From Endomicrobiia bacterium (GTDB lineage: Bacteria > Elusimicrobiota > Endomicrobiia > DTEH01): a stretch of DNA of 64,000 nt. The position numbers and the translations under genes are program-made. Positions 19,107-36,212 of the stretch are shown here, piece by piece (the first letter of the stretch is position 1; each line of letters opens with the position of its first letter). The stretch lies in the NCBI GenBank assembly GCA_025060535.1, contig JANXCA010000001.1:7730-71729 (forward strand). The letters are read 5' to 3'. The notes below the pieces were generated by a model, which saw only the letters and a program-made list of their open reading frames with translations, was not told the origin of the DNA and made no database searches.

Positions 19107-19441
19107 TTTATTCTTTCTTTATAATTTCTGTACTCATCACATACAGATTGCTGACACATTTTTACACCGGATTTATAAGCTGCTTTTGCTAAAGCATGAG
19201 ATGATACAGGTGACGTCAAAAATACAAAAATAATTATTAATAAGGCTTTTAAACCTATAATTGTAAAACCATAGTAGAAAAATACTCCAAAAAATATGCC
19301 ACAAGTTCCTAAGGTTACACATTTAGTAGATGCTTGTAACCTAGTATATACATCAGGAAATCTTACCAAACCCAAGCATCCTATTAAATCTGCTATTATT
19401 CCAATTGTTATAAAAAATAATCCTATAATTTCATTCATCAA
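19103..19441 (-). CDS. Mrp/Mnh antiporter subunit G-like (MbhC-like)
   Basis: 112 aa, 3 TM, MnhG/PhaG-like. Position and order within an mrpABCDEFG-type array. Confidence 0.65.
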   Translation of the reverse strand: MMNEIIGLFFITIGIIADLIGCLGLVRFPDVYTRLQASTKCVTLGTCGIFFGVFFYYGFTIIGLKALLIIIFVFLTSPVSSHALAKAAYKSGVKMCQQSVCDEYRNYKERIK

Positions 19442-19766
19442 ATTTTTTCCCCTCCAGGTATTTTGCTAAAGCTAAATTCCCTATAAATGATTGTAATGCC
19501 CAAGCTATTGCTACATCTATAAAAAATGCTGCTTTTGTAAAAACTGTAATAATTCCACATATACCTACTACTATAAGTCCCAAAATATCTGTAGCTACAG
19601 CTCGGTCTGCAGGTGAAGGTCCAAGAAATATCCTATAAAGACACAAAATTATACTCAAAATCATAGGATTTACAAATCTTATAATTAAATCCATTTTTAT
19701 AACTAAATTAGATATTATAAAAACAGCTATTAAAACTAAACAAATGATATAATTTATTTTTTTCAT
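19431..19766 (-). CDS. Mrp/Mnh antiporter subunit F-like (MbhB-like)
   Basis: 111 aa small membrane protein at the position between MrpE-like and MrpG-like. Confidence 0.6.
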   Translation of the reverse strand: MKKINYIICLVLIAVFIISNLVIKMDLIIRFVNPMILSIILCLYRIFLGPSPADRAVATDILGLIVVGICGIITVFTKAAFFIDVAIAWALQSFIGNLALAKYLEGKKFDE

Positions 19767-19780
19767 ATCATGAAAATAAA

Positions 19781-20287
19781 CTACTTACACGTAATTTTCA
19801 TTAGAATTTTTTCAAATTTATGAGCTATTTTTTTAGTAACAGCTTCCACGTCTACGTCTCTTACATATATCCAATGCACATAAATATATCCATTCTCTTT
19901 ATCTATATCAACACTCAAAGTACCTGGTGTCAATGTTATTGAATTTGCCAAAATTGTTAAAAATGCATCTGATTTTATACTAGTTTTAACTTTAACTATT
20001 CCGGGTTTTATTGGCATATTAGGTGATAAAATTCTATATGCTACATCTATATTGGCTTTTATTACTTCATAAAGGAAAATAATAATATAATATAAAAACC
20101 ATAAATACCTTTGTGGTTTTTTAAATGTCCACTCATTTTGAATATTAATATCTCCAAATAATAATATAAGTATAACACTACAAATAATACCGAATATTAC
20201 ATTATAAATTTCAAATCCAGACAAAATTATCCATACCAAAAAAACTAAACATATAAGAAAAATTTTCCTATACACTCTTATTTTCAT
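19781..20287 (-). CDS. Mrp/Mnh antiporter subunit E-like (MbhA-like)
   Basis: 168 aa with N-terminal TM pair; operon position. Confidence 0.55.
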   Translation of the reverse strand: MKIRVYRKIFLICLVFLVWIILSGFEIYNVIFGIICSVILILLFGDINIQNEWTFKKPQRYLWFLYYIIIFLYEVIKANIDVAYRILSPNMPIKPGIVKVKTSIKSDAFLTILANSITLTPGTLSVDIDKENGYIYVHWIYVRDVDVEAVTKKIAHKFEKILMKITCK

Positions 20288-21774
20288 TTTAAGATAAACT
20301 TAATATATAAATTTTCAGTGATAAATTTTATTACTCCATCAAATACTATATGTTTTATATTAGGATATAAAATTATTCCTGAAACAAAACACAAAATCGC
20401 TAATGTTAACATAGAAAACTGCATAAAAAAAGGAACTTCTTTTAAAAGTTTTGGACCTGTATTATATTTTTGTTCGGTATAAAAAGCATATTTTAGAACT
20501 TTTAAAAAACTAGCTAAAGTTAAAACACTTACTAAAGCCGCAATCAAAGCTAATAAGATATCTCTTTTTTCTAAACAAGCTATTATTATAATTAATTTTG
20601 ACCAAAAACCGTTAAAAGGAGGAATTCCTGCAATAGAAAAACTTCCTATTGTTGCAGAAAATGTAGTAATTGGCATTATTCTGTTTACATTATGATACTC
20701 CTTTAAGTTTCTAGTTCCAAAATTATACTCTAAAGCTCCACTTGTTAAAAATAGCAAAGATTTAAATAATGAATGATTAAATAAATGGAAAATACCACCC
20801 AAAATACCCATAGGAGTTGCAAGTCCAATTCCTAAAAAAATATATCCAACTTGACTAATAGAATGATATGCAAGAAGCCTTTTGTAATCCCACTGATATA
20901 AAGCAAGTATCACTCCAACAACCATAGATAAAGTTCCCAGATAACAAATCATCTTTAAGATTTTCTCATCTATAGGAAATACATTAAAGAATAACCTTAC
21001 TATCAAGTATACACCAAGTGTTTTAATAAGAACTCCAGAAAGCATTGCAGAAATTGGTGCCGGAGCTGAAGGATGTGCATCTGGTAACCACCAATGAAAA
21101 GGAACTATTGCTGCTTTAATAACAAAACCAATCATAAATATAAACATTATTACTCTAATAATAAGTTTGTCTTCAGATAATATCAAAATAGAAGCAATAT
21201 CTGCTAAGTTCAATGTAGATGTATAAGCATATATTAAAACTATACCTAATAAAATTAAACCTGTAGAGATAGACCCTAACACCATATATTTAAAGGATGC
21301 TTCTAATTCTTCCTTTTGAGTACCAAAAGCAACGAGTCCATATGAAGCAATAGTTGCTATTTCTAAAAACACAAATATATTGAATATATCTCCACTTATT
21401 ATAACACCATTCATGCCAGCAAGCATTAATTCAAACAAAGAGTAAAACCCCCACTTCTCTGTATATTTTTCAATATATGACACAGAATATATACCTACTA
21501 AAAATGCAACTAAGTTTACTGTAAACAACATAAAAACACTAACAGGATCGGCTACAAGAGCAACTCCATATGGAATTTTCCATCCCCCTACTTCATATAC
21601 AAAAATATTATTGTTTAATGTGTTAATTTTATAAATCCATATAATACATAAAATTAAAACTACAAAATTTATAAGATTTACAAAAACCTCAGAAAATAAC
21701 TTTAAAAATCTTCCAACCATAGTATTAATAAAAGCAGCAAATAACGGTAGAACAACAAAAAGTGGTAAAGTCAT
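20284..21774 (-). CDS. MrpD/NuoN-like proton/sodium-translocating antiporter subunit
   Basis: 496 aa, ~14 TM, NuoL/M/N family signatures (WLPDAH..AP). Confidence 0.85.
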   Translation of the reverse strand: MTLPLFVVLPLFAAFINTMVGRFLKLFSEVFVNLINFVVLILCIIWIYKINTLNNNIFVYEVGGWKIPYGVALVADPVSVFMLFTVNLVAFLVGIYSVSYIEKYTEKWGFYSLFELMLAGMNGVIISGDIFNIFVFLEIATIASYGLVAFGTQKEELEASFKYMVLGSISTGLILLGIVLIYAYTSTLNLADIASILILSEDKLIIRVIMFIFMIGFVIKAAIVPFHWWLPDAHPSAPAPISAMLSGVLIKTLGVYLIVRLFFNVFPIDEKILKMICYLGTLSMVVGVILALYQWDYKRLLAYHSISQVGYIFLGIGLATPMGILGGIFHLFNHSLFKSLLFLTSGALEYNFGTRNLKEYHNVNRIMPITTFSATIGSFSIAGIPPFNGFWSKLIIIIACLEKRDILLALIAALVSVLTLASFLKVLKYAFYTEQKYNTGPKLLKEVPFFMQFSMLTLAILCFVSGIILYPNIKHIVFDGVIKFITENLYIKFILK

Positions 21775-21782
21775 AAAATTAT

Positions 21783-22154
21783 TTAACCTCTTAACTCTTT
21801 TATTTTTGTAATATCAAATGTTTTATACCTATGATATAATCTTAACGCAACAGCAACCATCAAAATTGTTATAGAAAGTCCTATCACAATAGAGGTTAAC
21901 ACCAAAGCTTGCGGAAGAGGATCCACTATATTATCCGCAGGACGATTTTTTAAAAATACAGGGAAACTACCGCCTTTTTTATAGCCTACTATTATAAAAA
22001 ACAAGTTTAGAGCATTATCCATTATTATAAATGATATTATAATCTTTAGTAAGTTTTTTTTCATTACTAACCCATATAAACCTACAAAACATAAACATAA
22101 ACATAAAATATATACTAACACAAAATTCCACCCTCCTTTTTTATTTTTCTTCAT
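21783..22154 (-). CDS. MrpC/NuoK-like subunit
   Basis: 123 aa, 3 TM, NuoK-like. Confidence 0.65.
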   Translation of the reverse strand: MKKNKKGGWNFVLVYILCLCLCFVGLYGLVMKKNLLKIIISFIIMDNALNLFFIIVGYKKGGSFPVFLKNRPADNIVDPLPQALVLTSIVIGLSITILMVAVALRLYHRYKTFDITKIKELRG

Positions 22155-22605
22155 CTTGTGGTGAAAATAATATCAAGCATAAGAAAGCACTTAACATTCC
22201 AAAACCCACTTTTATCATAATTGCTATATTAGCTGGTAATATCATACCTCCGGATAACAAACTAAATGCTTTTCCCTGTCCCAAAAAATCCTTAAAAAAC
22301 ACTCCCACAGAAAACCCCATTATAGATATAGAAAGAAACATTAACGCTCCTGTAGTTTCCAAAGATTCCGATAAAATTTTATTAATTTTTTTAACTACAA
22401 AATCTTTACCGTACGCAAGTATTATATGAATAAAAGATAAAGCAACTATAACTCCACCAGCAAACCCTCCCCCCGGACTTAAATGACCAAAAAGAGTAAT
22501 ATACCAACCGTAAAGCATAATAAATAAAACTGTCCATCTGGTGACTGTTTTTACTATCAAACTCATCCCAGATGATGTAAAATTCTTATTATTGGTTTCT
22601 TTCAT
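22141..22605 (-). CDS. MrpB-like subunit
   Basis: 154 aa, 4 TM; MnhB domain position. Confidence 0.55.
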   Translation of the reverse strand: MKETNNKNFTSSGMSLIVKTVTRWTVLFIMLYGWYITLFGHLSPGGGFAGGVIVALSFIHIILAYGKDFVVKKINKILSESLETTGALMFLSISIMGFSVGVFFKDFLGQGKAFSLLSGGMILPANIAIMIKVGFGMLSAFLCLILFSPQDEEK

Positions 22606-23125
22606 TATTTAACTTTTTACCAACTTTTCTTAAAATTAAAATCACCGATAAAATTGCAGTAAATAAAACTGTTGCTTCTCCTAAAGTATCGTAAGCTCTA
22701 TAATTTAAAATTATAGCAGCAACTATATCCGTAGCACCTGTATCACTAATAGTATTTTTTATGTAATAATCTGAAACTCTATATTTAGGATTTCCAAAAT
22801 CAGGTAAAAATCTTAAAGAAAATCCTAATATAACCAAAAATATAAGGATACTCATCAGAATTGGTATTCGCAACAAAATTTTCTTTTTTTCATATACATC
22901 TTCATCTCTTACTATTGTAGCTCTTATTAGTATTACTAAGGATAATATTTCCACCACAAACTGAACAATAGCAACATCAGGAGCTTGAAGCAACAAAAAC
23001 AATAATGTTAAAATTAACCCTACCGCTCCTAAACTAATAACTGAAGACAATAAATCTCTTATTTCGATAGCAACTATAGCTGCTATAATCATTAATAATA
23101 TAAGTAAAGAAATAATTATTTCCAT
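22589..23125 (-). CDS. MrpA C-terminal-domain/MrpB-like small membrane subunit (MbhD/E-like)
   Basis: 178 aa, very hydrophobic, sits between MrpA-like and MrpB-like. Confidence 0.45.
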   Translation of the reverse strand: MEIIISLLILLMIIAAIVAIEIRDLLSSVISLGAVGLILTLLFLLLQAPDVAIVQFVVEILSLVILIRATIVRDEDVYEKKKILLRIPILMSILIFLVILGFSLRFLPDFGNPKYRVSDYYIKNTISDTGATDIVAAIILNYRAYDTLGEATVLFTAILSVILILRKVGKKLNNERNQ

Positions 23126-23137
23126 AAAGTTTTAAAA

Positions 23138-25021
23138 TCACAACAAAAATATAAAAAATAAAATTAAAATGCTTATAAATATCCAAGACAAATAACTATG
23201 TAAGTTACCATTATGTAAAAAAGATAATTTTTCAGCTACTTTAAATATATTTTTTTTGCTAAAGATATACAAATCCACTATATCTAACTTAAGGACCTTA
23301 CTAATACCATTTACTAAAAAAGATAAACTCCACAAAAACCAATTATAAATATCAAATAATTTATTTTCTGCTAAATAATAAAGTACTGAAAAAGGAAACA
23401 TTTGCTTTATTGTTAAATAAAAATCTGTAGATGGAAAATAAGATTCTCCTAACTTCTCTTCTTCTCCAAGAAGGTATACATTTACTTTTCTAGGTTTATC
23501 TACAAATAATATATATATAATCAAACCAATAAAAACTCCCAAAATTAATAAATATGTAGCTGCTTGAGCATTCCATTCTCCAATCAATAAAATTTTTTCA
23601 AAACCCAGCATTGGTTTAACAATTCTACTAATAGGTATCTCAAAAGAAAAAATTCCTAAAATTATACATAAAATAGCTAATATACCCATTGGTAATACAT
23701 TAAATATTTTTTCTTTCTCCTTTAATACTCTATTAGTATGTTCATCTTCGTTTTTTGAAAGAAATACTGAATATAACACCTTTACAAAAGAAGCGAATGT
23801 AAGTGCACTACCAAACATAATACTTATTAAAACTAATACACCTACAAAAAAGTATTTTTTTGAAACTTCTATAACTGACTGATATATAAGCCACTTAGAA
23901 AAAAAACCATTAAATGGAGGAATTCCTGAAATAGATAAAGCAGCAATTAAGGTAAAAACAAAACATAAAGGATAATATTTTGCTAAACCCTTAGCTTTAG
24001 TAAGTTCTACATCTTCAGTATATTTTTCAACAAAATCAGAAGACAAAAAAAGTAAAGTTTTATAGATAGTATTATTTATCATATGAAAAACCCCACCTAC
24101 AATACCTAAAACCGATCCTGTCGAAATCCCCACAACCATATATCCAATTTGTGAAATAGCATGATATGAAAGAAGTTTTTTTAAATTATGTTGTATCAAA
24201 GCCATAAATACTGCAATTAAAACAGTTAAACCCCCTAATATCATTAGAAAAGGATGATAACTTAATATAAATATATCTTTTGTAATCCTTACTAACAAAT
24301 ATATACCTAAAATTTTATCTAAAGCTCCAATTAAAAAACCTCCTAAAGCAGAGGGTATCTTCTCTGCAGTTTCAGGAATCCAAGTATGAAAAGGTATAGC
24401 TCCAATTTTACCTAAAGCACCGATTGTTAAAAGACTAAATATCAAAGGATATTTATTAACATCTAAATTATATGAAGTAAAATATAATCCATACATATTA
24501 GAAGCTTCCTTAATTAAAAGAATAATGCCTATTAGTAGGGAAAAATCACTTATACTTATTATAGTTATTGCTTTTGTCGCTGTATTAAACTCATCATTTG
24601 CAGTCACAAATCTTATTAATAAGTAAACAAGTATTCCCAAAATTTCCCAGGAAATTAAAAACAAAATTAAATTTTTGGATAAAAGTGATAAATGTGTGAA
24701 TGCTAAAATAAAAAAAATAAATGAAAAATATATATTTTCTTTTACTGTATCTAAAATTTTTTTTGAAAAAATTACTACAATTAATCCAAAGAAAGAAGCT
24801 AATACAGAACTTATTAAAGAAGTAAAATCACTTATTAGAACTATATCTATTTTTAAGAATTTTAACCAATCAATCATATATTCTTTTCTATTCACTAGCA
24901 AAAGGAGGTTTAACACAAAACAACAAAAAGAAAAAAATAAACTTATGAAATATAATTTTTTTCTAAAAATTAAACAAATCAATCCAGCTAATAAAGGAAT
25001 TAGTATTATTAAATAACCCAT
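23138..25021 (-). CDS. MrpA/NuoL-like antiporter subunit (long form)
   Basis: 627 aa, NuoL family core plus C-terminal extension TMs. Confidence 0.8.
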   Translation of the reverse strand: MGYLIILIPLLAGLICLIFRKKLYFISLFFSFCCFVLNLLLLVNRKEYMIDWLKFLKIDIVLISDFTSLISSVLASFFGLIVVIFSKKILDTVKENIYFSFIFFILAFTHLSLLSKNLILFLISWEILGILVYLLIRFVTANDEFNTATKAITIISISDFSLLIGIILLIKEASNMYGLYFTSYNLDVNKYPLIFSLLTIGALGKIGAIPFHTWIPETAEKIPSALGGFLIGALDKILGIYLLVRITKDIFILSYHPFLMILGGLTVLIAVFMALIQHNLKKLLSYHAISQIGYMVVGISTGSVLGIVGGVFHMINNTIYKTLLFLSSDFVEKYTEDVELTKAKGLAKYYPLCFVFTLIAALSISGIPPFNGFFSKWLIYQSVIEVSKKYFFVGVLVLISIMFGSALTFASFVKVLYSVFLSKNEDEHTNRVLKEKEKIFNVLPMGILAILCIILGIFSFEIPISRIVKPMLGFEKILLIGEWNAQAATYLLILGVFIGLIIYILFVDKPRKVNVYLLGEEEKLGESYFPSTDFYLTIKQMFPFSVLYYLAENKLFDIYNWFLWSLSFLVNGISKVLKLDIVDLYIFSKKNIFKVAEKLSFLHNGNLHSYLSWIFISILILFFIFLL

Positions 25022-25025
25022 ATGT

Positions 25026-26411
25026 TTAAATTTTTATTAATTTTAAAATTATATCTGGATAAACTCCTAAAATAACAGAAAAAAAGGTCAATAAAGCAAC
25101 TACAAAAACCATCCAAGAATAGTGTTGTTTAATATCATATTTTTTGGTTCCTAAAAATACACTATTATATACCCTCATAAAATATACCAAGCTTAAAAGA
25201 GCACCAATGATTAATAAAAATGCTAATGTAATTTTATTTGCTTGTAGCATACCCTTTAATATAAAAAATTTACTCCAAAAACCACTAAAAACTGGAAAAC
25301 CTATTATAGACAATCCACATAAGAAGAAACATGCAGAAACTATCGGCATATTTTTTGATAAACCTCCGAGTTTTAAAATATTCTTTTCTTTTAACTCATG
25401 TTCAATTATTCCTGCAGATAAAAACAACCCTGCTTTTGCAAAAGCATGAGAAATTATATAAAAAATTGCTCCAATTATACTTTCTTTCACATTGACTGCG
25501 AATCCTAAAAATATATAACCTAGTTGAGAAATTGTAGAATATGCTAAAATTCTTTTTATATCAAACTCTGCTAAGGCCATAAAACTTGATATAAAGATTG
25601 TAAAAAATGATAAATAAATAATTAATGACTGTAAATTATTTGAAATTTGAAAAGTAAAATTAAAAATCCTTCCAAAAGCATAGGTTCCTATTTTTACAAG
25701 AACTGCTGCATGTAAAAGTGCTGTAACAGGAGTAGGAGCTACACCTGCATCAGGTAGCCAACTTTGAAATGGTAACTGTGCAGATTTTGCTATCATACCA
25801 ATAATTAAAAATACACCTGCTAAATCAGAAATTTTTCTATCTTTTAAATATGTAAAATCAAAACTTCCAAATTCTATATAATTAATAACTATTCCACATA
25901 ACATCAAAACTGAGCCCAAAGAAGTAACAAGAAAAGCCTTGTTAGCTTTTGTAATATGATCATCTTTTTTGTAAAATTTAATCAATTTCCAAGAACATAA
26001 AGAAGTTAATTCCCAAAAGATATACATCAAAATTAAATTACAACTGAAAACTAAACCTATCATTGAAGCTATAAATAAGGTATTGTAAAAATAATAGTAT
26101 CTTTGATTTTCATCCTCTGATATATACTCAAACGAATAAAGAGTAATTAATAGACTAATAAATACTGAAGTTAAAATAATTAATAATGAATAAAAATCAA
26201 TTATGAAAATATTTATTCCTTTAAAATTTAATAAAAAATTTTTTTCTATATTTAAAAAAAATCTTAAAGACAACACAACCAAACATATTAAACTTAGACT
26301 TATAAAAAATAAAGATAAAAACTTATATAACTTTTTGTTTTTTAAACTTCCAATAAGAAAAACACTTATAAATAATAATATTAAGCTACTTAAAATTAAA
26401 ATATTATTCAT
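25026..26411 (-). CDS. Additional NuoL/M/N-like antiporter subunit of the hydrogenase module (MbhH-like)
   Basis: 461 aa; NuoL/M/N family signature (SWLPDA..P..VTALLHAA). Confidence 0.8.
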   Translation of the reverse strand: MNNILILSSLILLFISVFLIGSLKNKKLYKFLSLFFISLSLICLVVLSLRFFLNIEKNFLLNFKGINIFIIDFYSLLIILTSVFISLLITLYSFEYISEDENQRYYYFYNTLFIASMIGLVFSCNLILMYIFWELTSLCSWKLIKFYKKDDHITKANKAFLVTSLGSVLMLCGIVINYIEFGSFDFTYLKDRKISDLAGVFLIIGMIAKSAQLPFQSWLPDAGVAPTPVTALLHAAVLVKIGTYAFGRIFNFTFQISNNLQSLIIYLSFFTIFISSFMALAEFDIKRILAYSTISQLGYIFLGFAVNVKESIIGAIFYIISHAFAKAGLFLSAGIIEHELKEKNILKLGGLSKNMPIVSACFFLCGLSIIGFPVFSGFWSKFFILKGMLQANKITLAFLLIIGALLSLVYFMRVYNSVFLGTKKYDIKQHYSWMVFVVALLTFFSVILGVYPDIILKLIKI

Positions 26412-27591
26412 AGAGTTTCCTTATTTTCTCTGTTTTCTGTTGAGAAAGTTTAACTAAATCGTCCCAACATAAAATTTCTTGATTTGTTTTTAAATCTACT
26501 ACAGTAGCTCTTTCTGTACAACAATAACAAGGATCCACAGCTGCCAAAGTTATTGCTGCATCTGCAATTGTTTGGCCCACAGCTGCTACTTTATTTGAAG
26601 CAATGTTCATATAAGAAGGAGCACGAATTTTATGTCTTATAGGTCTGTTAGAACCATCTGACCGAATATAGTGAAAAACTTCACCACGAGGAGCTTCATG
26701 TCTTCCTATACCTTCACCAGGTGGTATAAAATCAATCTTAGTTTCTATATTCCCCTCAGGTTCCTTTTTCAATTTTTCTAAACATTGTTTTATTATTTTA
26801 ATTGACTCATACATTTCAAGAATTCTAACCACTGCTTTATCAAAAACATCTCCATTATATAAGACAGGAACATTAAATTCAACCTCTCCATAAGCAGCAT
26901 AAGGATCATCTCTTCTTACATCTATGTCTATACCACTTGCACGAGCTGTAGGTCCTACTACACAATACTTAATAGCATCTTCTTTTGTCAGAACACCAAC
27001 TCCTTTAAGTCGTGCATGAATTACTGGATCATCCATAATAGCACCTCTAAACATATCAATCACTGACAACAACCCATCACACATTTTTTCTATCTGGGGG
27101 ACTAAATCATTCGGAATATCTCTTCTTACTCCACCAACTTTAAACATAGCATAATGTTGACGATTACCAGAGATAACTTCTAATATATCACACACATTCT
27201 CCCTATGCTTCCAGGACCACATCCATATTGTATTATATCCTATAAAATGTCCAGCCAATCCTAACCATAAAAAATGAGAATGTAATCTTTCAAGTTCTCC
27301 TATTATACTTCTTATGTATTTAGCACGTACAGGTACATCTATCCCAGCTAAATCCTCCACTGCATTTACATAAGCAAAAGGATGACTTGTAGAACATATA
27401 CCACATATTCTCTCAACTACAAATGGGATTTGATCGTAATGCTTAAGGGTAGAAATTTGTTCAATACCACGATGATTATATCCTATTTCTATTTCTATAT
27501 CTACAACTTTTTCCTCTTCTACATATAATTTAAAAAATTCTGGCTCTTCTTGTAAAGGATGATATGGCCCTATTGGAATAATTTTTTTCAT
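26404..27591 (-). CDS. Group 4 [NiFe] hydrogenase large subunit (NuoD/MbhL-like) with intact Ni-Fe ligands
   Basis: N-terminal RICGICSTSH (RxCGxCxxxH) and C-terminal DPCYCCTER (DPCxxCxxR) read directly; 395 aa. Confidence 0.9.
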   Translation of the reverse strand: MKKIIPIGPYHPLQEEPEFFKLYVEEEKVVDIEIEIGYNHRGIEQISTLKHYDQIPFVVERICGICSTSHPFAYVNAVEDLAGIDVPVRAKYIRSIIGELERLHSHFLWLGLAGHFIGYNTIWMWSWKHRENVCDILEVISGNRQHYAMFKVGGVRRDIPNDLVPQIEKMCDGLLSVIDMFRGAIMDDPVIHARLKGVGVLTKEDAIKYCVVGPTARASGIDIDVRRDDPYAAYGEVEFNVPVLYNGDVFDKAVVRILEMYESIKIIKQCLEKLKKEPEGNIETKIDFIPPGEGIGRHEAPRGEVFHYIRSDGSNRPIRHKIRAPSYMNIASNKVAAVGQTIADAAITLAAVDPCYCCTERATVVDLKTNQEILCWDDLVKLSQQKTEKIRKLYE

Positions 27592-28017
27592 TTATTTTTC
27601 CCTTAATGGATAGCTATTATCTGGCCAATCGTCAGATAATAACAAATGTTTCAAATTAGGATGCCCTATAAAGTTTATACCTATCATCTCCCATATTTCC
27701 CTTTCTATCCATTCAGCTGCAGAAAAAATTGAACTTAAAGAATATATTTCTGGTTTTTCTTTACTAAGCTTTACCCTTAGTGAAACTATCTCTCCTGTTT
27801 TATCATAACTAAAATGATAAATAATCTCAAAATATTTTTCACAATCCATGCCAGTAGCAGTTATAAATCTAAATCCTAACTCATTAAATAAAAGACTTGC
27901 AACTTTTTTTATACTTTCCGGCTTAATTTCAATATAATATCTTCTGTCATTTTTTTTAAATAACTCAATCGTATCTTCACTTATTCTTTGGGTTATTTTA
28001 TTTATTATCTCACTCAT
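27592..28017 (-). CDS. NuoC-like hydrogenase subunit (MbhK-like)
   Basis: 141 aa; NuoC/HycE N-terminal-domain family; immediately precedes the large subunit. Confidence 0.7.
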   Translation of the reverse strand: MSEIINKITQRISEDTIELFKKNDRRYYIEIKPESIKKVASLLFNELGFRFITATGMDCEKYFEIIYHFSYDKTGEIVSLRVKLSKEKPEIYSLSSIFSAAEWIEREIWEMIGINFIGHPNLKHLLLSDDWPDNSYPLREK

Positions 28018-28025: not shown

Positions 28026-28445
28026 TTATGTTTTTAGAGATTTTATCAATTTTACTATACCATCAATTATAGCTTCTGGCTTGGGAGGACAACCAGGTAC
28101 ATACGCAGAAACAGGAACAATTTTATCAACATCACAAGGACTATTAAAAGAATCCTTAAAAACTCCCCTTCCACAAGCACAAGTACCAATTGCTACTACA
28201 AAACATGGTTTAGGAGCTTGTTCATATAAATATTTCAATTTTGTATAATTTTTATAATTAGGCACACCTGTCACCAACAAAACATCTGCGTGTCTAATGG
28301 AACCTACTAGTTGAATACCAAATCTTTCTAAGTCATATCTTGGAGTCAAAGCATCTAAAATTTCAATATCACAGTTATTACATGGAGAAAGAGGTAAATG
28401 AAAAACCCACAATGATTTTAATAAAGATTTTTTTATTAATCCCAT
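28026..28445 (-). CDS. [NiFe] hydrogenase small subunit, NuoB/MbhJ-like
   Basis: Cys ligands SPCNNCDIE, GTCACGRG, PGCPPKPE. Confidence 0.85.
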   Translation of the reverse strand: MGLIKKSLLKSLWVFHLPLSPCNNCDIEILDALTPRYDLERFGIQLVGSIRHADVLLVTGVPNYKNYTKLKYLYEQAPKPCFVVAIGTCACGRGVFKDSFNSPCDVDKIVPVSAYVPGCPPKPEAIIDGIVKLIKSLKT

Positions 28446-28452: not shown

Positions 28453-29364
28453 TTATAAAATAAATAATAAAATAACTGATAATAAACTTAAAGGGAATAT
28501 TATAAACCAAAAAAATTTCATTACTTGAATTATTTTTAATCTCGGATTTATATTTTTAAAAATAATTATAAAAAATAAAATCATTAAGTACTTTATTACA
28601 AAAGAAACGACTCCTCCATCAAAAAAATATAATCCTACTAAAAAAGCTGGAAAAAGAGACATAAAAACTTGTTTTGTTAATTTTATTAATCCTAAAAGAA
28701 TTCCAGAAAATTCCATCAAAATGCCTCCAGCAATTTCAGTCTCAGCTTCAGGAGCATCAAATGGTACTATCCCACTTTTAGCATATAAACAAATAAATAA
28801 TACAAAAAATGACAAAATTGAAGGCAAAGAAAGAGTATTCTTTTGCATTATTTCTATCAACTTTAAGCTACCAGAGTTTAAAATTGGAACTAATGTTGCT
28901 GTTATGAGTGGTAATTCATAAGATAATAACATTTTTATTTCTCTAGAAACTCCCAATGATACAATTACATTGCCAGATGAAGCTCCCCCTAGTATTAACA
29001 TAACAGAGGGAATTAACAAAAGATAAACAAAAACAGTAATATCTCCGATAAATCCTTTTTTAAAAATTATAGCTGTCCATAAAATAGAAGATGCTAATAC
29101 AACTGATGCAAAACTTAAAAATGGAGATAAGAAAAACAGTAAGTTTGCATTTTTAGGAACGGTTACTTCTTTTAAAAGTAGTTTAAAAAAATCATATAAA
29201 GGTTGAAGCAAAGGTGGACCTTGACGATATTGTAGTCTTGCTGTTATCTTTCTATCTAAAAAACTCACAAAAATAGAAAGAATAAAACTAAACAAAAATC
29301 CAGGAAATAAAAGATAAATAAACAAAGAATTTATAACATTCATAATTACTTCTCTAAAATCCAC
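28453..29364 (-). CDS. NuoH-like membrane subunit (MbhM-like)
   Basis: 303 aa, 8 TM, GPPLLQPLYDFFKL motif. Confidence 0.8.
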   Translation of the reverse strand: MDFREVIMNVINSLFIYLLFPGFLFSFILSIFVSFLDRKITARLQYRQGPPLLQPLYDFFKLLLKEVTVPKNANLLFFLSPFLSFASVVLASSILWTAIIFKKGFIGDITVFVYLLLIPSVMLILGGASSGNVIVSLGVSREIKMLLSYELPLITATLVPILNSGSLKLIEIMQKNTLSLPSILSFFVLFICLYAKSGIVPFDAPEAETEIAGGILMEFSGILLGLIKLTKQVFMSLFPAFLVGLYFFDGGVVSFVIKYLMILFFIIIFKNINPRLKIIQVMKFFWFIIFPLSLLSVILLFIL

Positions 29365-29870
29365 TTCATTACACGAACAACTAAGTTCTTATTTATTTCA
29401 TATATATTTTCTTTTTCATTCGGTTGCACATCTCTATAAGAAATAGCTCCTTCCGGACAAGTCACACTGCATAAAGGAGGATTCTCATCACTTGCACGGT
29501 CTAAACAAAAATCACATTGTGAACTTTTATAATCTAAAACATCTTTGTATATAGTACCAAATGGACAAGCTACTAAACAACTTTTACAAGATGTGCATCT
29601 AAATAAACTTTTATGTAAAATACCATCTTTATCTTTAAATAAGGCCTCATTTGGACAACTATTTATACAAAACGCATCTTCACATCTTCTACAAATAAAA
29701 TACTGTAAGACCTTTGAAAAAAACTTCTCAAATCCTTTGTTTAAAGATTTTTCTTTTGGTTTATCTTTATAAACATGCGAATGTTGATAAAAATAAGAAC
29801 ATTCTGCTTTACATTCTTTACAACTATAACATTTTTCTATGTCTATAAATATTCTTTTCATTTTATTCAA
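29346..29870 (-). CDS. HycB/HyfA/CooF-like ferredoxin with four [4Fe-4S] motifs
   Basis: CysxxCysxxCysxxxCys(Pro) motifs x4 (CYSCKECKAEC, CRRCEDAFCINSCP, CTSCKSCLVACP, CDFC...CSVTCP). Confidence 0.75.
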   Translation of the reverse strand: MNKMKRIFIDIEKCYSCKECKAECSYFYQHSHVYKDKPKEKSLNKGFEKFFSKVLQYFICRRCEDAFCINSCPNEALFKDKDGILHKSLFRCTSCKSCLVACPFGTIYKDVLDYKSSQCDFCLDRASDENPPLCSVTCPEGAISYRDVQPNEKENIYEINKNLVVRVMKWILEK

Positions 29871-30684
29871 ATGGTTCTGGTATGTCTTTTAGTTGCTCCC
29901 AACTAAACACAGGCCCATCTTTACAGATAAAATAACTTCCAATCTGACAATGACCACATTTGCCTAAACCACAACTCATATTTCGTTCCATTGAAAGATA
30001 AATCTGATTAGGTTTAAATTTCATATCAATCAATTTTAATGTAGTAAATTTCATCATTATCGGTGGTCCACATACAACAGCAACCGAATTTTCTACATCA
30101 ATTTTTATCTTATCTAACAAACAAGTAACCACCCCTACAGTTTCATCCCACTCTCCCGGCTGACATCTATCTACAGATCTTAAAATTTCCAATCCTTTAA
30201 TTTTATACCATTCTGGAAACAGATATTTATATACTATATCAGATGGAGTTCTTGCTCCGTAACATAAAACTATTTTTTTAAAATCTGAAATTTTTTCAAT
30301 TAAAGTAAAAAGTAAAGATCTCAATGGCGCAAGTCCTACTCCTCCACCAACTATTAACACTTCCTTTCCCACAAAACTTTCAACAGGATAACCTTTCCCA
30401 TAAGGACCGCGAATGCCGACTATTTCTCCCTCTTTCATAGAATGCAAAAATTCCGTCATTCTCCCCACACGCATAATTGTCACATCCATTGTGTCTGTTT
30501 TATATGGAGAAGAAGAAGGTGTAAACGGCGCTTCTCCAACACCATATACTGTAAGTTCTATAAACTGCCCAGTTTTAAAAGAAAACTTATCGCTATCTAA
30601 TGGTTTAAGAGTAAATGTTTTAATATTTGGAGTTTCTTCTATAATCTTTATAATTTTAAAATTTTGAGGTTTATATATACTCAT
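29863..30684 (-). CDS. FAD/NAD(P)-binding oxidoreductase with C-terminal 2Fe-2S (PyrK/AsrB/sulfhydrogenase gamma HydG-like)
   Basis: FNR-like fold (GIRGPYGKGYP, LIVGGGVGLAPLRSL) and C-terminal CGLGKCGHCQ...C cluster. Confidence 0.8.
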   Translation of the reverse strand: MSIYKPQNFKIIKIIEETPNIKTFTLKPLDSDKFSFKTGQFIELTVYGVGEAPFTPSSSPYKTDTMDVTIMRVGRMTEFLHSMKEGEIVGIRGPYGKGYPVESFVGKEVLIVGGGVGLAPLRSLLFTLIEKISDFKKIVLCYGARTPSDIVYKYLFPEWYKIKGLEILRSVDRCQPGEWDETVGVVTCLLDKIKIDVENSVAVVCGPPIMMKFTTLKLIDMKFKPNQIYLSMERNMSCGLGKCGHCQIGSYFICKDGPVFSWEQLKDIPEPFE

Positions 30685-30694
30685 TTTTAAAAAA

Positions 30695-31732
30695 TTAAAC
30701 CAAAACTTCTTCTCCTTTTGCTAAAACTAAACTTCTTATAACTTTTCTCATATCTATTTTCCCTGGACAAACTTCTATACATCTACCACAACCACTACAG
30801 GCATACATATTAAAATTTTCATATCTATATACAAACTTACATTGATATCTGTTTCTAAAACGTTGATATTTATATTTTCTAGGATTTGCTCCACCCGCAA
30901 CTCTGGAATATCCAGTAAAATGGCACACATCCCATACTTTATCTCTGTGTTGATCTTTATAATCCTTTGAAGCTTCCCTAATTAAAAAGCAATAACAACT
31001 TGGACATATAAAATTACAACCTCCACATTGAACACATTTTTCTGATTCTTTTTCCCAAATGCTTTCTAATTCATATGTATTTTTTAATGTAAGATAATGC
31101 TTATTTTTTTTATCTTCTTTGATATATTCTTTATTAAACTCATATATTTTCCTTTCAGAAACTACCCTTACACTATTTCTTTTTAAATAATCATTTTTTG
31201 TTGGTTCTTCAAACTCATTAAAATTTTCTTTTAAAAATTCCTCACCCTTTTGAGTAAATGCCTCCAAAATCAAATTATTTTCATCTACAAAAGAAATATT
31301 TAAGTCACTTCCGTCCCCTTTTTCTACATAAGGTCTACCACCAACTATACTACAAAAACAAGACAACTGAGGATTTATACAATCAGAAGATATAATTAAA
31401 GTATTTTCTTTATAAATTTTATATTTCTCATCTACATATTCTTCTCCTATAAATATATTGTCTAAAATTCTTATTGCTTTGAGGTCACAAAATTTTACAT
31501 CTAACAATAAAATCTTTTCGACAGAAGTAAAACTGGTTAGTATGTCTTTTACTTTAAAGAAAAATAATTTAGGAGGGTGTATACAACGAATGTTTAATAA
31601 TGCTAAATTTTGTATTTCTTGTGGATTAATTATTTTTTTATAGATTTGATCAAAATTATGATATATTATAATAAAATTATTCAAATTTTTAAAAACCGAT
31701 AAAAGATCGGAATAATTTATTATTTTCTCCAT
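30695..31732 (-). CDS. AsrA / sulfhydrogenase beta (HydB)-like iron-sulfur protein; first gene of the hydrogenase operon
   Basis: 345 aa; CVQCGGCNFICPSCYC and CSGCGRCIEVCP motifs. Confidence 0.7.
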   Translation of the reverse strand: MEKIINYSDLLSVFKNLNNFIIIYHNFDQIYKKIINPQEIQNLALLNIRCIHPPKLFFFKVKDILTSFTSVEKILLLDVKFCDLKAIRILDNIFIGEEYVDEKYKIYKENTLIISSDCINPQLSCFCSIVGGRPYVEKGDGSDLNISFVDENNLILEAFTQKGEEFLKENFNEFEEPTKNDYLKRNSVRVVSERKIYEFNKEYIKEDKKNKHYLTLKNTYELESIWEKESEKCVQCGGCNFICPSCYCFLIREASKDYKDQHRDKVWDVCHFTGYSRVAGGANPRKYKYQRFRNRYQCKFVYRYENFNMYACSGCGRCIEVCPGKIDMRKVIRSLVLAKGEEVLV

Positions 31733-31759: not shown

Positions 31760-31806
31760 ATTATAAAATTTTTAAAAAGATATATAATACAAAATATCTT
31801 GTCAAG
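31760..31806 (-). promoter_or_regulatory. Putative sigma70-type promoter of the hydrogenase operon (-10 TATAAT at 31765-31760; TTGACA at 31805-31800)
   Basis: Hexamers read on minus strand. TTGACA/TATAAT spacing is 34 nt, so either an alternative -35 or a second -10 (TATCTT region) is used. Ambiguous. Confidence 0.35.
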
Positions 31807-32240: not shown

Positions 32241-33734
32241 TCACCTTATGACTTTAATGGTTTTTAAATTTTCACTTTCTTGTCCACTTATTCTTACTGC
32301 GTAGGAAGAAATTTCTTGAAGATAATCAACTGTGTCCTTAGTTATTCTTTCTCCTGGAGTTAAAATAGGTAATCCAGGAGGATAAGGTGTTAAAGTCTGT
32401 GCTGAAATGTATCCCACAGATTTTTTTAAAGAAACTCTCTTTGTATTAGTAGAAAAAAATGCATCTCGAGGAAGCATTACAACTTCAGTAGAAAGTGGAG
32501 GAATTTGAAGTTTCTGAATCTCATAATCTCCAGAGTATTTTTTGGAAATATCTGTTATAGCATACACCAACTTCTCTACATCCTCTTTTGATGTACCAAA
32601 TCCACTTATCGCTACTAAATTAAACATATCAGCACAGTCAACTTGGATTTTATATTCCTTAGCAAGGATTTCTTCTATTTTATACCCTGTAAGACCTGTC
32701 TTTGTAACATTTATTGTAAGTTTTGTAAGATCTAAATCATAATATTCTGATTTGATTTCTTTTCTTGTCAAAGCAAATATATTAGGAAGTTTGTTAATTT
32801 CTTCTCTTGCCTTTTCACAATAAGAAATAATTTTACTAAAAACTTTAGTTCCATTTTTTACTACTTGCATTCTCGCTGCATCAATAGATGCTAAAATAAA
32901 ATAATTTGGACTTGTGGTTTGAAGCATGGATACAACTCTTTTTACTCTGTTTATATCAATCTTTGAAGAATTAAAATGTAATACTGATGCTTGACTTAAT
33001 GCTGAAAGTACTTTATGAACTGAATGCACACACATATCAGCTCCCACCTCCACAGCTGAAACAGGTAAGTCAGGATGGAACTTCAAATGCGGACCATGTG
33101 CTTCGTCTACTAATAAAATTTTGTTATGTTTTTTACAAACTTCTTGTATTTTTATAAGATCAGGACATATACCATTGTAGTTAGGAGAGGTTATAAATAC
33201 TGCTTTTGCTTCTGGATAGTTATTAATATATTCTTCTACTTCTTTAGAAGAAATTTCATATATTATGTCCCTTTGTTGATCCACTACAGGTTTAGCCCAT
33301 ATGGGCCATACACCTGCAAGAATTATACCTGCTAAAACTGACTTATGACATGTTCTTGAAAGTATTACAGAATCTCCAGGATCACAAGCAGACAACAACA
33401 TAGCGATATTACCTACAGTGGAACCATTTACTAAGAAAAATGAATTTTTTACATTGTAAGCTTTAGCCATAAGCTCTTGAGCAAGTTTTATACAGCTTAC
33501 AGGATCATGTAAAGAATCTACTTCAGGAAAAACAGTTACATCTAAGTAATATACATTACGTTTTGTAAAATCCCTTAATTTAGGCAAGATACTAGCACCA
33601 TTTTTATGTCCCGGAGTATGAAAAGATGTTACTTTGTTCTTTGCATGATTAAGTAAAACATCCAAAAGTGGTGTTGAATTTTGTGTAATTTTCATTTTTT
33701 GTTTTAGTTTATATTTTTTTCTTTTTTTTGTCAA
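32241..33734 (-). CDS. Orn/Lys/Arg decarboxylase family 1 (PLP-dependent; SpeA-type arginine decarboxylase candidate)
   Basis: SFHTPGHKNG N-terminal motif of the OKR_DC_1 major domain; 497 aa. Confidence 0.75.
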   Translation of the reverse strand: MTKKRKKYKLKQKMKITQNSTPLLDVLLNHAKNKVTSFHTPGHKNGASILPKLRDFTKRNVYYLDVTVFPEVDSLHDPVSCIKLAQELMAKAYNVKNSFFLVNGSTVGNIAMLLSACDPGDSVILSRTCHKSVLAGIILAGVWPIWAKPVVDQQRDIIYEISSKEVEEYINNYPEAKAVFITSPNYNGICPDLIKIQEVCKKHNKILLVDEAHGPHLKFHPDLPVSAVEVGADMCVHSVHKVLSALSQASVLHFNSSKIDINRVKRVVSMLQTTSPNYFILASIDAARMQVVKNGTKVFSKIISYCEKAREEINKLPNIFALTRKEIKSEYYDLDLTKLTINVTKTGLTGYKIEEILAKEYKIQVDCADMFNLVAISGFGTSKEDVEKLVYAITDISKKYSGDYEIQKLQIPPLSTEVVMLPRDAFFSTNTKRVSLKKSVGYISAQTLTPYPPGLPILTPGERITKDTVDYLQEISSYAVRISGQESENLKTIKVIR

Positions 33735-33809
33735 TATTTAAAATAAAATTTTTAAATGATAATTGAATTTTATTTCATTATTTTATAATTAAAAAATTCA
33801 CAAAAACCT

Positions 33810-34925
33810 ATGAAACCAAACATAAATATAGAAACTCCTTATTATTTTATCGACGAAAAAAAGATATTTAAAAATTTAAAAAAAATATCCTGGCTTAAAG
33901 AAAAAACCGGTGTAAAGGTAGTGCTTGCTTTAAAATGTTTTTCAACATGGAGCGTCTTTGGTTTACTTCGTGAATATCTTGATGGTACTACAAGCAGCTC
34001 ATTATACGAAACACGCCTAGGATATGAAAAATTCGGTAAAGAAACTCATGCATATTGCGTTGGATACACATTAGAAGATATAAAAGAAATTAAAAAATAT
34101 TCTAACATAATTATATTTAACTCTATAAGTCAACTAAAAAGATTTTACAAAGAAGTAAAAGGATTAAGCATAGGAATAAGGATTAATCCTAAAGTAAGTT
34201 ATTCACAATATGATTTAGCTGATCCTGCAAGAAAATTTTCAAGGTTGGGTGTAATTGATAAAAATGAGATCAAAAAAATAATAAATCTTATTGATGGTGT
34301 CATGTTTCATTTTAATTGTGAAAACGACAATTTTGAAAATTTTTCTAATAACTTGGATTATATTTCAAAAGAATTTGAAGATATTTTACATAAAATGAAA
34401 TGGGTTAGTCTAGGAGGTGGTATTTATTTTACAAAAAAGGGCTATCCTCTAAATGAGTTCGCAAAGAAACTAAAATCTTTTATAAAGAAGTTCAAACTTC
34501 AAGTATATTTAGAACCAGGAGAATCTGTAGTTACAGAAGCTGCTGAGTTAGTAACAAAAGTAGTAGATATAGTACATAATGAAATTGATATTGCTATAGT
34601 AGATGCTTCTACAGAACCTCATATGTTAGATTTACTTATTTATGGTACTCCTGCAAAAATTAAATCATATCCTGACGGGAAATATAGATATATGATAGCT
34701 GGGAGATCATGTTTAGCTGGAGACATATTTGGTGTTTATAATTTTAGAAAAAAATTAAAAGTTGGAGATATAATAAGAATACAAGATGCTGCGGGATATA
34801 CAATGGTAAAGAAAAATTGGTTTAATGGTTTACAAATGCCTTCTATTGTAGTAAAAAGACTAAATGGTAATATAGAAGTAGTCAGAAAATTCACATATGA
34901 GGATTATTTATATAGTTTATCATAA
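33810..34925 (+). CDS. nspC: Carboxynorspermidine/carboxyspermidine decarboxylase
   Basis: 371 aa alanine-racemase-fold decarboxylase; adjacent to CASDH gene. Confidence 0.8.
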   Translation: MKPNINIETPYYFIDEKKIFKNLKKISWLKEKTGVKVVLALKCFSTWSVFGLLREYLDGTTSSSLYETRLGYEKFGKETHAYCVGYTLEDIKEIKKYSNIIIFNSISQLKRFYKEVKGLSIGIRINPKVSYSQYDLADPARKFSRLGVIDKNEIKKIINLIDGVMFHFNCENDNFENFSNNLDYISKEFEDILHKMKWVSLGGGIYFTKKGYPLNEFAKKLKSFIKKFKLQVYLEPGESVVTEAAELVTKVVDIVHNEIDIAIVDASTEPHMLDLLIYGTPAKIKSYPDGKYRYMIAGRSCLAGDIFGVYNFRKKLKVGDIIRIQDAAGYTMVKKNWFNGLQMPSIVVKRLNGNIEVVRKFTYEDYLYSLS

Positions 34926-34970
34926 AAGTTCATTAAAAAATCTAAAATTTAAAGCAGGAGGTTAAAAACT

Positions 34971-36212
34971 ATGGCAAGAAAAAATGTTTTACTTATAGGT
35001 GCAGGAGGTGTAGCACATGTAGCTGCACATAAAATAGCAATGAATAATGACATATTAGGTGATCTATGTATAGCTTCTAGAACACAAAGTAAATGTGACA
35101 AAATTATAGAAAGTATTAAAAGAAAAGGAAATATAAAAGATACCTCAAAGAAAATATATTCAAGACAAGTAAATGCATTGGATGTCAAGGCTGTAGTAGA
35201 ATTAATAAAAGAAACAAAATCAGAAATGGTAATAAATTTAGGACAATCCTATGTTAATATGTCAGTACTTGAAGCTTGTATAGAAACAGGAGCAGCATAT
35301 TTTGATACAGCAATACATGAAGAACCCGATAAAGTTTGTGAAAATCCTCCATGGTATGCAAACTATGAATGGAAAAGAAAAGAAATATGTGAAAAAAAAG
35401 GTATTACTGCGATTTTATCTGTTGGTGCAGATCCAGGTATTGTGAATGCATATACTGCATATGCAAAAAAACATTATTTTGATGAAATAACCACTGTAGA
35501 TATAGTAGATGTAAATGCAGGAAATCATGGAAAATTTTTCGCTACTAATTTTGACCCTGAAATAAACTTTAGAGAATTTGTAAAAGCATGGGTGTGGATT
35601 GATAAAAAATGGGTAGCTGAACCAGTACATACAATAAAAAGAGAATTTGATCTTCCTGGATTAGGAAGATATACTGTGTATTTAAACGGACATGATGAAA
35701 TACATTCTTTATCTCAAAATATGGATATAAATACAATAAGGTTCTGGATGTATTTTTCTGATCATTATCTTAATGTATTTAACACATTAAAAAACATAGG
35801 ATTAACTTCTCACCTCCCCATAAAAACACATGATGGAAAAGAAGTAATTCCCTTAAGAGTTTTAAAAGCTCTTCTTCCTGATCCCGCTTCGTTAGCTGGT
35901 CCTAACTATACTGGTGTAGAATGGATAGGTAATTTTATAGAAGGAAAAAAGAATAATAAGGAAAGAAAAATGGTAATATATCTAATATGCGATCATCAAG
36001 AAGTATGGAAAGAGGTTGAATCACACGCAATTTGTTATACAGCAGGTGTTCCCCCAGTAGTCGCAGCAATACTTGTAGCAAAAGGAATTTGGGATGTTAA
36101 AAAAATGGTGAATGTAGAAGAATTAGATCCTGATCCATTCCTTGAAATTCTTTCAAAAAATGGACTAAAGACACATATAATAGTAGAAGAAATTGAAAGG
36201 AAAGAGATTTAA
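34971..36212 (+). CDS. Carboxynorspermidine/carboxyspermidine dehydrogenase (saccharopine dehydrogenase-like)
   Basis: VLLIGAGGVAHVAAHKIA Rossmann N-terminus; 413 aa. Confidence 0.8.
   Translation: MARKNVLLIGAGGVAHVAAHKIAMNNDILGDLCIASRTQSKCDKIIESIKRKGNIKDTSKKIYSRQVNALDVKAVVELIKETKSEMVINLGQSYVNMSVLEACIETGAAYFDTAIHEEPDKVCENPPWYANYEWKRKEICEKKGITAILSVGADPGIVNAYTAYAKKHYFDEITTVDIVDVNAGNHGKFFATNFDPEINFREFVKAWVWIDKKWVAEPVHTIKREFDLPGLGRYTVYLNGHDEIHSLSQNMDINTIRFWMYFSDHYLNVFNTLKNIGLTSHLPIKTHDGKEVIPLRVLKALLPDPASLAGPNYTGVEWIGNFIEGKKNNKERKMVIYLICDHQEVWKEVESHAICYTAGVPPVVAAILVAKGIWDVKKMVNVEELDPDPFLEILSKNGLKTHIIVEEIERKEI

Follow-up and report, generated by a model that had tools for sequence, protein, structure and literature searches.

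An AsrAB-like flavin and iron–sulfur module heads a Hun-type, Mrp-linked [NiFe] hydrogenase operon in Endomicrobiia and is a candidate NAD(P)H input

The 64,000-nucleotide stretch of an Endomicrobiia bacterium that we analysed (assembly GCA_025060535.1, contig JANXCA010000001.1, positions 7,730 to 71,729; hereafter the window) carries an operon for a membrane-bound [NiFe] hydrogenase, whose first three genes, hunA, hunB and hunC, encode two proteins resembling the electron-transfer subunits of cytosolic sulfhydrogenases and of anaerobic sulfite reductase (HunA and HunB) and a HycB-like polyferredoxin (HunC). This raises the question of what such a module does at the head of a membrane hydrogenase operon. 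With moderate confidence, we propose that hunABC encodes the cytoplasmic electron-input module of a Hun-type, Mrp-linked membrane [NiFe] hydrogenase, an enzyme that would be organised like formate hydrogenlyase (FHL) with an NAD(P)H dehydrogenase as its input, and that would be reversible and ion-coupled.

The window has a G+C content of ∼28% and nearly all of its genes lie on the minus strand. The operon comprises 17 close-packed minus-strand genes, running from 31732 down to 18435, of the Mbh/Mrp-type [NiFe] hydrogenase kind. The three open reading frames (ORFs) named in the preliminary description of this DNA, which was made from the letters alone, were found on the minus strand as described, with a NuoH-like gene following at 28453-29364. 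They are indeed the first genes of the operon, being separated by a 76-nt gap from an upstream dksA-like gene. We searched the products with domain hidden Markov models, and the Pfam and NCBIfam matches agreed with the AsrA-like, AsrB/HydG-like and HycB-like identities proposed for them.

We first consider HunB (29863-30684, minus strand; 273 aa), a γ/AsrB/PyrK-like flavoprotein. Its Pfam domains (FAD_binding_6, NAD_binding_1 and DHODB_Fe-S_bind) predict one domain for FAD, one for NAD(P) and a [2Fe-2S] site at the C terminus. We observed that the flavin motif GEAPFTPSS, the nucleotide loop GGGxGxAPxR, the motif CGPPxMMKF and the [2Fe-2S] ligands C238, C243, C246 and C254 were all 95–100% conserved in 77 orthologues. 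Hence all the FAD, NAD(P) and [2Fe-2S] motifs of the FNR family are kept, which at the level of motifs supports the earlier suggestion that this protein binds FAD and NAD(P)H. The pyridine-nucleotide site is under purifying selection, and because it is kept so strictly across phyla, we predict that HunB binds a nucleotide. At position 145, which aligns with an Arg of the NADPH-dependent HydG, only R or K occurs; this gives no more than a hint on the choice between NADH and NADPH. To our knowledge, the NAD(P)(H) site sits on this subunit in every characterised member of the PyrK/HydG/AsrB/NfnA family.

HunA (30695-31732, minus strand; 345 aa; Pfam Fer4_22, 7e-27) is a sulfhydrogenase-β/AsrA-like Fe-S protein. 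Fifteen of its cysteines are invariant (100% in 79 orthologues): the N-terminal C82, C118, C125 and C127, those of two CxxCxxCxxxC motifs, and C246, C248 and C270. Its nearest solved relative is the β chain of the NADPH-dependent, soluble sulfhydrogenase I of Pyrococcus furiosus (SHI; PDB 9nez_B, 5.7e-39), with ∼27–28% identity, and that of HunB is the γ chain of the same enzyme (9nez_C, 1.3e-50). The AlphaFold2 model of HunA (predicted local distance difference test, pLDDT, 91.6) had as its top Foldseek match 9nf0_B, with a template-modelling (TM) score of 0.81–0.83. The entry 9nf0 is the 'NADPH-bound SHI complex', and its chain B (β) superposes on the HunA model.

The best NCBIfam matches of HunA were ShyB (1e-42), HydB (6e-42) and AsrA (2e-32), and those of HunB were the hydrogenase gamma model PRK08345 (6e-72), ShyC (8e-64) and AsrB (9e-63). 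Measured against the curated equivalog cut-offs, HunA reached 146 versus 690 bits for ShyB, 144 versus 750 for HydB and 112 versus 323 for AsrA, while HunB reached 216 versus 600 bits for ShyC, 178 versus 650 for HydG and 212 versus 289 for AsrB. As HunA, HunB and HunC fall far below such cut-offs, they constitute a distinct subfamily. The β and γ subunits of sulfhydrogenase I (group 3b; 9nez/9nf0) are full-length homologues of HunA and HunB and share with them the Cys ligands and the FAD, NAD(P) and [2Fe-2S] motifs. However, the partner of βγ in sulfhydrogenase I is a cytosolic αδ dimer, whereas in Hun it would be a membrane-bound group 4 pair of the NuoD/NuoB type, reached through an extra polyferredoxin. 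HunAB is thus likely to work like βγ, yet from its equivalog scores and its lack of an αδ dimer partner we do not regard it as a member of group 3b.

The matches to the AsrA and AsrB models bear on a rival explanation, in which HunAB would provide the reductase component of an anaerobic enzyme that reduces sulfite, polysulfide or sulfur, acting either with an AsrC partner encoded at another locus or in sulfur reduction independent or downstream of H2. The β/γ subunits of sulfhydrogenases have also historically been credited with S0 reductase activity (cited too in PMC9686372), and AsrABC of Salmonella and Clostridia shares the AsrA- and AsrB-type folds and cofactor motifs with Hun. Nevertheless, both proteins stay under the Asr cut-offs, the hydrogenase β models outscore the AsrA model for HunA, and the partner conserved across Hun loci is not the siroheme subunit AsrC but a [NiFe] hydrogenase whose ligands are intact. 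In the ORF map of the 64-kb window, of which only part of the ORFs was scanned with Pfam, no gene resembling asrC was recognised, and the operon order of the 70 syntenic loci described below leaves no room for one, their upstream flanks not being annotated. We therefore rejected the sulfite-reductase role on these scores and on the missing AsrC; the sulfite/polysulfide function entertained in the preliminary description is unsupported, and we give this whole explanation next to no credence.

What is this conserved partner? HunD (28453-29364; Pfam NADHdh, 2e-57) is the NuoH/HycD/MbhM-like membrane anchor of the peripheral arm. It is followed on the same strand by HunE (28026-28445; Oxidored_q6, 6e-28), the NuoB-like hydrogenase small subunit with the proximal [4Fe-4S] cluster, by the NuoC-like HunF (27592-28017; Complex1_30kDa, 2e-29) and by HunG (26404-27591; Complex1_49kDa and NiFeSe_Hases), the NuoD-like [NiFe] large subunit. 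HunG carries the nickel-site motifs RICGICSTSH (L1) and DPCYCCTER (L2), and ∼33 residues after L2 make up a C-terminal extension; two CxxC Ni-Fe ligand pairs and such an extension, which serves proteolytic maturation, tell a [NiFe] hydrogenase from the Ehr, Mbx and complex I-like non-hydrogenases. In 62 orthologues C63, C66, C355 and C358 are 100% and C357 is 97% conserved. The best solved relative of HunG is MbhL of group 4d (6cfw_L, 3e-91), followed by HycE (7z0s_E). P. furiosus Mbh (6cfw) resembles Hun in having an Mrp-derived membrane module and a NuoH/B/C/I-like core besides this closest solved large subunit, but it lacks a βγ or HycB-like module, ferredoxin being its direct donor.

Next, we followed the association of hunABC with the hydrogenase across genomes. 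With an alignment of 49 HunA homologues, a scan of GTDB genomes, one for each species, yielded 516 relatives; the best 80 of these formed the synteny sample, and the ORFs of their loci were searched with the 17 proteins of the window. The order HunA-HunB-HunC-NuoH and onwards was kept in 70 of the 80 loci, nine others being cut by a contig end and one being ambiguous. The [NiFe] large subunit was present in all 51 loci having at least 6 kb of downstream sequence. The association is thus far beyond chance, and chance adjacency is ruled out by the conserved synteny. The preliminary description had called the attachment of such a module to an Mrp-coupled membrane hydrogenase unusual. This holds only against biochemically characterised enzymes; the layout itself spans more than 20 phyla in our sample and already appears in three genome-mining papers.

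The hosts among the best 80 include Elusimicrobiota, Omnitrophota, WOR-3, Aerophobetes, Cloacimonadota, Latescibacterota, Caldisericota and Marinimicrobia, as well as Planctomycetota, Spirochaetota, Calditrichota, Atribacterota, Thermotogota, Bacillota, Actinomycetota and others, and among them is the cultured Desulfosarcina variabilis. By HunA, the closest kin of the window are Endomicrobiia metagenome-assembled genomes with 97%, 76% and 75% identity; looking up HunB by its exact sequence gave no match. The relatives ranking below the best 80 presumably include group 3b and Asr proteins.

Within the window operon, hunA, hunB and hunC are spaced by ≤10 nt from one another and from the NuoH-like gene. 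The overlaps of 8 nt and 19 nt reported earlier exist only for the longest ORFs, starting at TTG 29870 and GTG 29364; the alternative ATG starts at 29861 (hunC) and 29343 (hunD) leave gaps of 1 nt and 2 nt and no overlap. Gene calls in the 97%-identical relative use these two ATG codons and yield proteins of 171 aa (HunC) and 296 aa (HunD), and in the orthologue alignment the conservation of HunC sets in at residue 5, which fits the start at 29861. Hence it is likely that HunC truly starts at ATG 29861 (171 aa) and HunD at ATG 29343. The hun genes are close-packed under either choice.

A terminator scan of the window operon found no terminator-like site between its genes, and thus none between 29364 and 29346, where the preliminary description had considered that an internal terminator might separate the module from the rest. 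The scan gave three weak hits, all within coding sequence, against 4.3 expected by chance. Those on the minus strand are two weak 5-bp stems, at 31710-31696 (within hunA) and 24354-24339, again both in coding sequence. A promoter-like site, TTGACA-17-TATCTT (31777-31805, minus strand), lies in the 76-nt gap upstream of hunA; it is a match to the consensus only, and such matches are at least as frequent in shuffled sequences.

These data speak to a second rival, according to which HunABC forms a soluble oxidoreductase of its own that shares no more than a transcript with an Mbh-type hydrogenase. A module at the 5′ end of an operon could in principle be such a unit. However, the gene order is invariant, the spacing does not exceed 10 nt, no other catalytic partner is encoded, and HunP, the product of the last gene of the operon, carries a HycB-docking Cys quartet that MbhN lacks. 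We regard a free-standing enzyme as very improbable.

The docking quartet deserves attention, since it concerns how the soluble module may be connected. HunC (29346-29870, minus strand; 174 aa as the longest ORF; Pfam Fer4_11, 7e-15) is a HycB/CooF/HydN-like polyferredoxin, whose 16 cysteines in four cluster motifs leave room for up to four [4Fe-4S] clusters. It matched DmsB and HydN in NCBIfam (∼1e-17 to 1e-18) and 8c0z_C, 7z0s_B (HycB, 1.4e-10) and 7qv7_A in PDB. HunP (18435-19106, minus strand) is a NuoI/HycF-like protein with two [4Fe-4S] motifs (NCBIfam FHL iron-sulfur subunit, 3e-25; HycF, 7z0s_F, 4e-16) and is closer to HycF than to MbhN. Its C-terminal C142, C145, C203 and C206 align residue for residue with C117, C120, C155 and C158 of HycF, and are 71–86% conserved in the seven orthologues reached by the fetched loci. 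MbhN (139 aa) aligns only with residues 10-68 of HunP, its N-terminal ∼60 residues, and lacks the C-terminal extension that bears the quartet. In Escherichia coli FHL, the quartet of HycF binds a single metal ion in an extension that contacts HycB (PMC9474812). At the sequence level, therefore, Hun has the connector signature of the FHL type, namely a four-cluster HycB-like ferredoxin together with a HycF-like subunit bearing the Cys quartet.

From the above, the following electron path can be proposed. HunB would take NAD(P)H at its FNR-type site; as in sulfhydrogenase I, the electrons would then reach the [4Fe-4S] clusters of HunA by way of FAD and the [2Fe-2S] cluster of HunB. The four-cluster HunC would receive them from HunA. 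In the manner of HycB in E. coli FHL, HunC may dock on the metal-binding extension at the C terminus of HunP, and from HunP the electrons would go on to the NuoB-like HunE and to the NiFe site of HunG. Such a design would be that of FHL or of the CO-dependent hydrogenases, except that FdhF or the carbon monoxide dehydrogenase would give way to an NAD(P)H dehydrogenase. FHL (group 4a; 7z0s), with its FdhF-HycB-HycF-HycG-HycE path, likewise combines a soluble dehydrogenase, a connector ferredoxin and a hydrogenase module. It differs from Hun in that its input is a molybdenum formate dehydrogenase instead of a flavin/NAD(P)-type βγ pair; further, the membrane arm of Hun is of the Mrp type with two to three antiporter-like subunits, and its large subunit is nearer to MbhL than to HycE.

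The production of H2 from NAD(P)H costs about +18 kJ/mol at 1 bar H2 (standard potentials −320 versus −414 mV). As this reaction is uphill, the Mrp/antiporter module would let ion influx drive the release of H2. In fermenters, ion influx through this module might thus power NAD(P)H-dependent H2 release, for which the Rnf complex of the window could supply the gradient; in the reverse direction, from H2 to NAD(P)+, the enzyme would export ions. A possible though tentative formulation is that Hun is a complex-I-like, ion-translocating NAD(P)H:H+ oxidoreductase with a module unrelated to NuoEFG, which in a fermenter like this Endomicrobiia bacterium would make, together with Rnf, a chemiosmotic equivalent of electron confurcation. 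In this combination, and here we speculate, the gradient built by electron flow from ferredoxin to NAD+ would pay for the step from NAD(P)H to H2.

How does this proposal compare with earlier descriptions? In Saganbacteria, Matheus Carnevali et al. saw a group 4 hydrogenase accompanied by Mrp subunits, and by cooF, asrA, asrB and a molybdopterin protein that might make up an 'oxidoreductase module' (PMC6349859). Méheust et al. (2020) described a 'Mbh-Mrp-oxidoreductase type' from several lineages of Elusimicrobia, among them a few genomes of lineage I, and gave its function as unknown (10.1101/765248). Glass et al. (2021) named a 16-gene operon 'hun' and its 16-subunit product 'Hun', which they found in Atribacteria, Omnitrophica, Elusimicrobia, Bacteroidetes, Firmicutes and Kosmotoga isolates; they placed HunG, with its CGIC/CYCC motifs, in a divergent HydDB group 4g, and reported an optional molybdopterin-domain gene between hunB and hunC (10.1101/536078). 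The window operon agrees with theirs in its run of AsrA-like, AsrB-like, ferredoxin, NuoH, NuoB, NuoC, NiFe large-subunit and antiporter/Mrp genes with the NuoI-like gene last, in the CGIC/CYCC nickel-site motifs, and in that Elusimicrobia are among the listed taxa. It differs in having 17 genes instead of 16, owing to an extra antiporter-like gene (25026-26411), and in lacking the molybdopterin-like insert. Judged by its gene content and motifs, it is a 17-gene Endomicrobiia variant of this already described, biochemically uncharacterised complex.

The main disagreement is over the donor, which Glass et al. predicted to be ferredoxin, whereas the motifs in the window point to NAD(P)H. In their model (10.1101/536078), HunABC is a ferredoxin-accepting wire, and the complex a ferredoxin-dependent, ion-pumping, H2-evolving Mbh with an extended Fe-S antenna. 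Ferredoxin reduced by, for example, pyruvate:ferredoxin oxidoreductase (PFOR) would donate to HunA, HunB or HunC, and the flavin would mediate between one- and two-electron steps or be vestigial. Group 4g is putatively ferredoxin-coupled according to HydDB (PMC5037454), the solved large subunit nearest to HunG belongs to the ferredoxin-dependent Mbh, PFOR-like genes are present in the window, and the reaction would be exergonic and suit an ion-exporting complex. On the other hand, the characterised Mbh works without any such module, and the 95–100% conservation of GGGxGxAPxR and CGPPxMMKF in HunB from many phyla is hard to explain without a bound nucleotide. The premise that AsrAB receive electrons from ferredoxin also conflicts with AsrB, HydG and PyrK being the NAD(P)H sites of their enzymes, and with the NADPH-bound structure 9nf0. 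We consider the ferredoxin model unlikely, although it has to be taken seriously.

A link between NAD(P)H and an ion-translocating hydrogenase seems the most economical reading, because HunB keeps its FAD, NAD(P) and [2Fe-2S] signatures and because the β and γ chains of sulfhydrogenase I are the closest solved relatives. The NAD(P)H proposal thereby appears better grounded in sequence than the published ferredoxin one. Several points nevertheless weigh against it. The reaction is endergonic at 1 bar H2; the assembly of HunABC onto the membrane complex is argued from gene order and from the analogy with FHL; and canonical Mbh accepts ferredoxin directly at its NuoI-like subunit, an entry that is also conceivable in Hun. 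Moreover, the only published functional prediction has ferredoxin as the donor to HunABC (10.1101/536078), and our search of the literature for biochemistry or transcriptomics of Hun, or of the Kosmotoga cluster, yielded nothing other than Glass et al.

The length of the Fe-S chain (HunA, the four clusters of HunC, and HunP) gives several possible entry points and thus admits yet another arrangement, a dual-donor hub in which ferredoxin and NAD(P)H share one chain. Hun would then be a membrane-bound ferredoxin:NAD(P)+ oxidoreductase and hydrogenase, the chemiosmotic counterpart of the electron-confurcating [FeFe] hydrogenases, with the ion module balancing the energetics. The two to three antiporter-like subunits and the presence of Rnf in the organism would agree with this, and Mbx was once proposed as a ferredoxin:NADP+ oxidoreductase, as quoted in PMC6349859. 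However, domain scans of the operon revealed neither a second flavin nor a GltD/NuoF-like bifurcating subunit, and this reading is the more complicated one; we hold it to be improbable. Flavin-based bifurcation itself was rejected, as there is no second flavoprotein.

If NAD(P)H and not ferredoxin is coupled to H2 and to an ion gradient, the metabolic reconstructions of Hun hosts would change. Among the carriers of Hun-type operons are many uncultured phyla of anaerobes, such as Atribacterota, Omnitrophota, Elusimicrobiota, Cloacimonadota, Marinimicrobia and Aerophobetes, which dominate sediments, groundwater, digesters and guts; such coupling would explain how these hosts dispose of glycolytic reducing equivalents or take up H2. 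Hun would be the first membrane-bound NAD(P)H-dependent hydrogenase. For the evolution of complex I, it would also be a living case of an NAD(P)H module other than NuoEFG carried by an Mbh/Mrp core, and would amount to a second, independent attachment of a pyridine-nucleotide module to this scaffold. The window itself is a modest result, adding one more Hun operon, but it sharpens a testable hypothesis, and the cultured hosts Kosmotoga and Desulfosarcina variabilis are open to biochemistry.

We also compared the forms of the operon among the best 80 loci. The commonest is of 16 genes, without the extra antiporter-like gene. The 17-gene variant, in which this gene directly follows that for the large subunit, was seen in the window and in loci L001, L002, L009 and L038. 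Loci L019, L060 and L076 have the extra gene too, plus a molybdopterin-oxidoreductase-like (MopB) insert. In a third form, the NuoI-like gene has moved directly behind the large subunit (L012, L024, L055, L044 and L053).

In total, six loci have a divergent MopB-like gene of 480–600 aa between hunB and hunC: L019 (6066-7721), L043 (1980-3725), L051 (4850-6301), L060 (11814-13415), L078 (12094-13893) and L076, where a similar-sized gap is found. Their hosts are WOR-3, Stahlbacteria, Latescibacterota and Calditrichaceae. The insert has an N-terminal Molybdop_Fe4S4 domain and weak Molybdopterin or Molydop_binding matches, and it could act either as a catalytic subunit or, like the C-terminal part of NuoG, as a scaffold without cofactor. 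In the window, no gene of the molybdopterin kind was recognised. A formate-dependent role was accordingly rejected for the window, where a MopB gene is absent, and is left open for the insert-bearing variants.

One of these loci, L078 (Calditrichaceae), also encodes a second, lower-scoring β/γ pair followed by a distant NiFe large subunit (4671-8678), 5 kb upstream of its Hun operon. This second locus is presumably a group 3b hydrogenase. The Hun-type and 3b-type βγ pairs thus coexist there as separate paralogues.

The membrane module of the window operon spans 19103-26411 on the minus strand, with matches to Proton_antipo_M, MNHE, MrpF_PhaF and PhaG_MnhG_YufB. It comprises three NuoL/M/N-MrpA/D-like antiporter subunits (25026-26411, 23138-25021 and 20284-21774; Proton_antipo_M), an MbhD/E-like protein (22589-23125), an MnhB-like protein (22141-22605) and a NuoK/MrpC-like protein (21783-22154), these last three being identified through MbhD/MbhE, MnhB and Oxidored_q2 matches, respectively, on the 97%-identical relative, and finally MrpE (19781-20287; MNHE), MrpF (19431-19766; MrpF_PhaF) and MrpG (19103-19441; PhaG_MnhG_YufB). 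Mbh has a single antiporter-like subunit.

Downstream of the operon on the same strand, a 91-aa ORF with the look of a coiled coil (18160-18435) takes the final base of the HunP stop codon as its first, a 1-nt overlap at 18435, and is followed by a 104-aa ORF (17745-18059) that is ZapA-like by eye; neither gave a Pfam match at 1e-5. No [NiFe] maturation gene was recognised in the 64-kb window. Scans for tRNAs and Rfam families found one tRNA-Leu only, with neither a riboswitch nor a leader in the vicinity of the operon.

About 26 kb from the Hun operon, the minus strand carries a complete Rnf operon, for a ferredoxin:NAD+ ion pump. It encodes an RnfB-like protein (57422-58249), two Rnf-Nqr membrane subunits (58259-58846 and 58851-59522), an FMN_bind subunit (59519-60208), RnfD (60205-61137) and RnfC (61142-62437). 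It is preceded on the same strand by the 2-oxoacid:ferredoxin oxidoreductase-like genes (TPP_enzyme_C, 62460-63347; PFOR_II, 63385-63897).

The Hun operon is adjoined by a polyamine gene set (32241-36212), annotated from the 97%-identical relative (L081). This set consists of an Orn/Lys/Arg decarboxylase (OKR_DC_1; 32241-33734, minus strand), an Orn_Arg_deC_N decarboxylase (33810-34925, plus strand) and a saccharopine-dehydrogenase-like protein (34971-36212, plus strand). The latter two resemble the carboxynorspermidine pathway. The GC skew is −0.06 to −0.34 over almost the whole window and reaches +0.22 only at 34–36 kb, at the two plus-strand genes.

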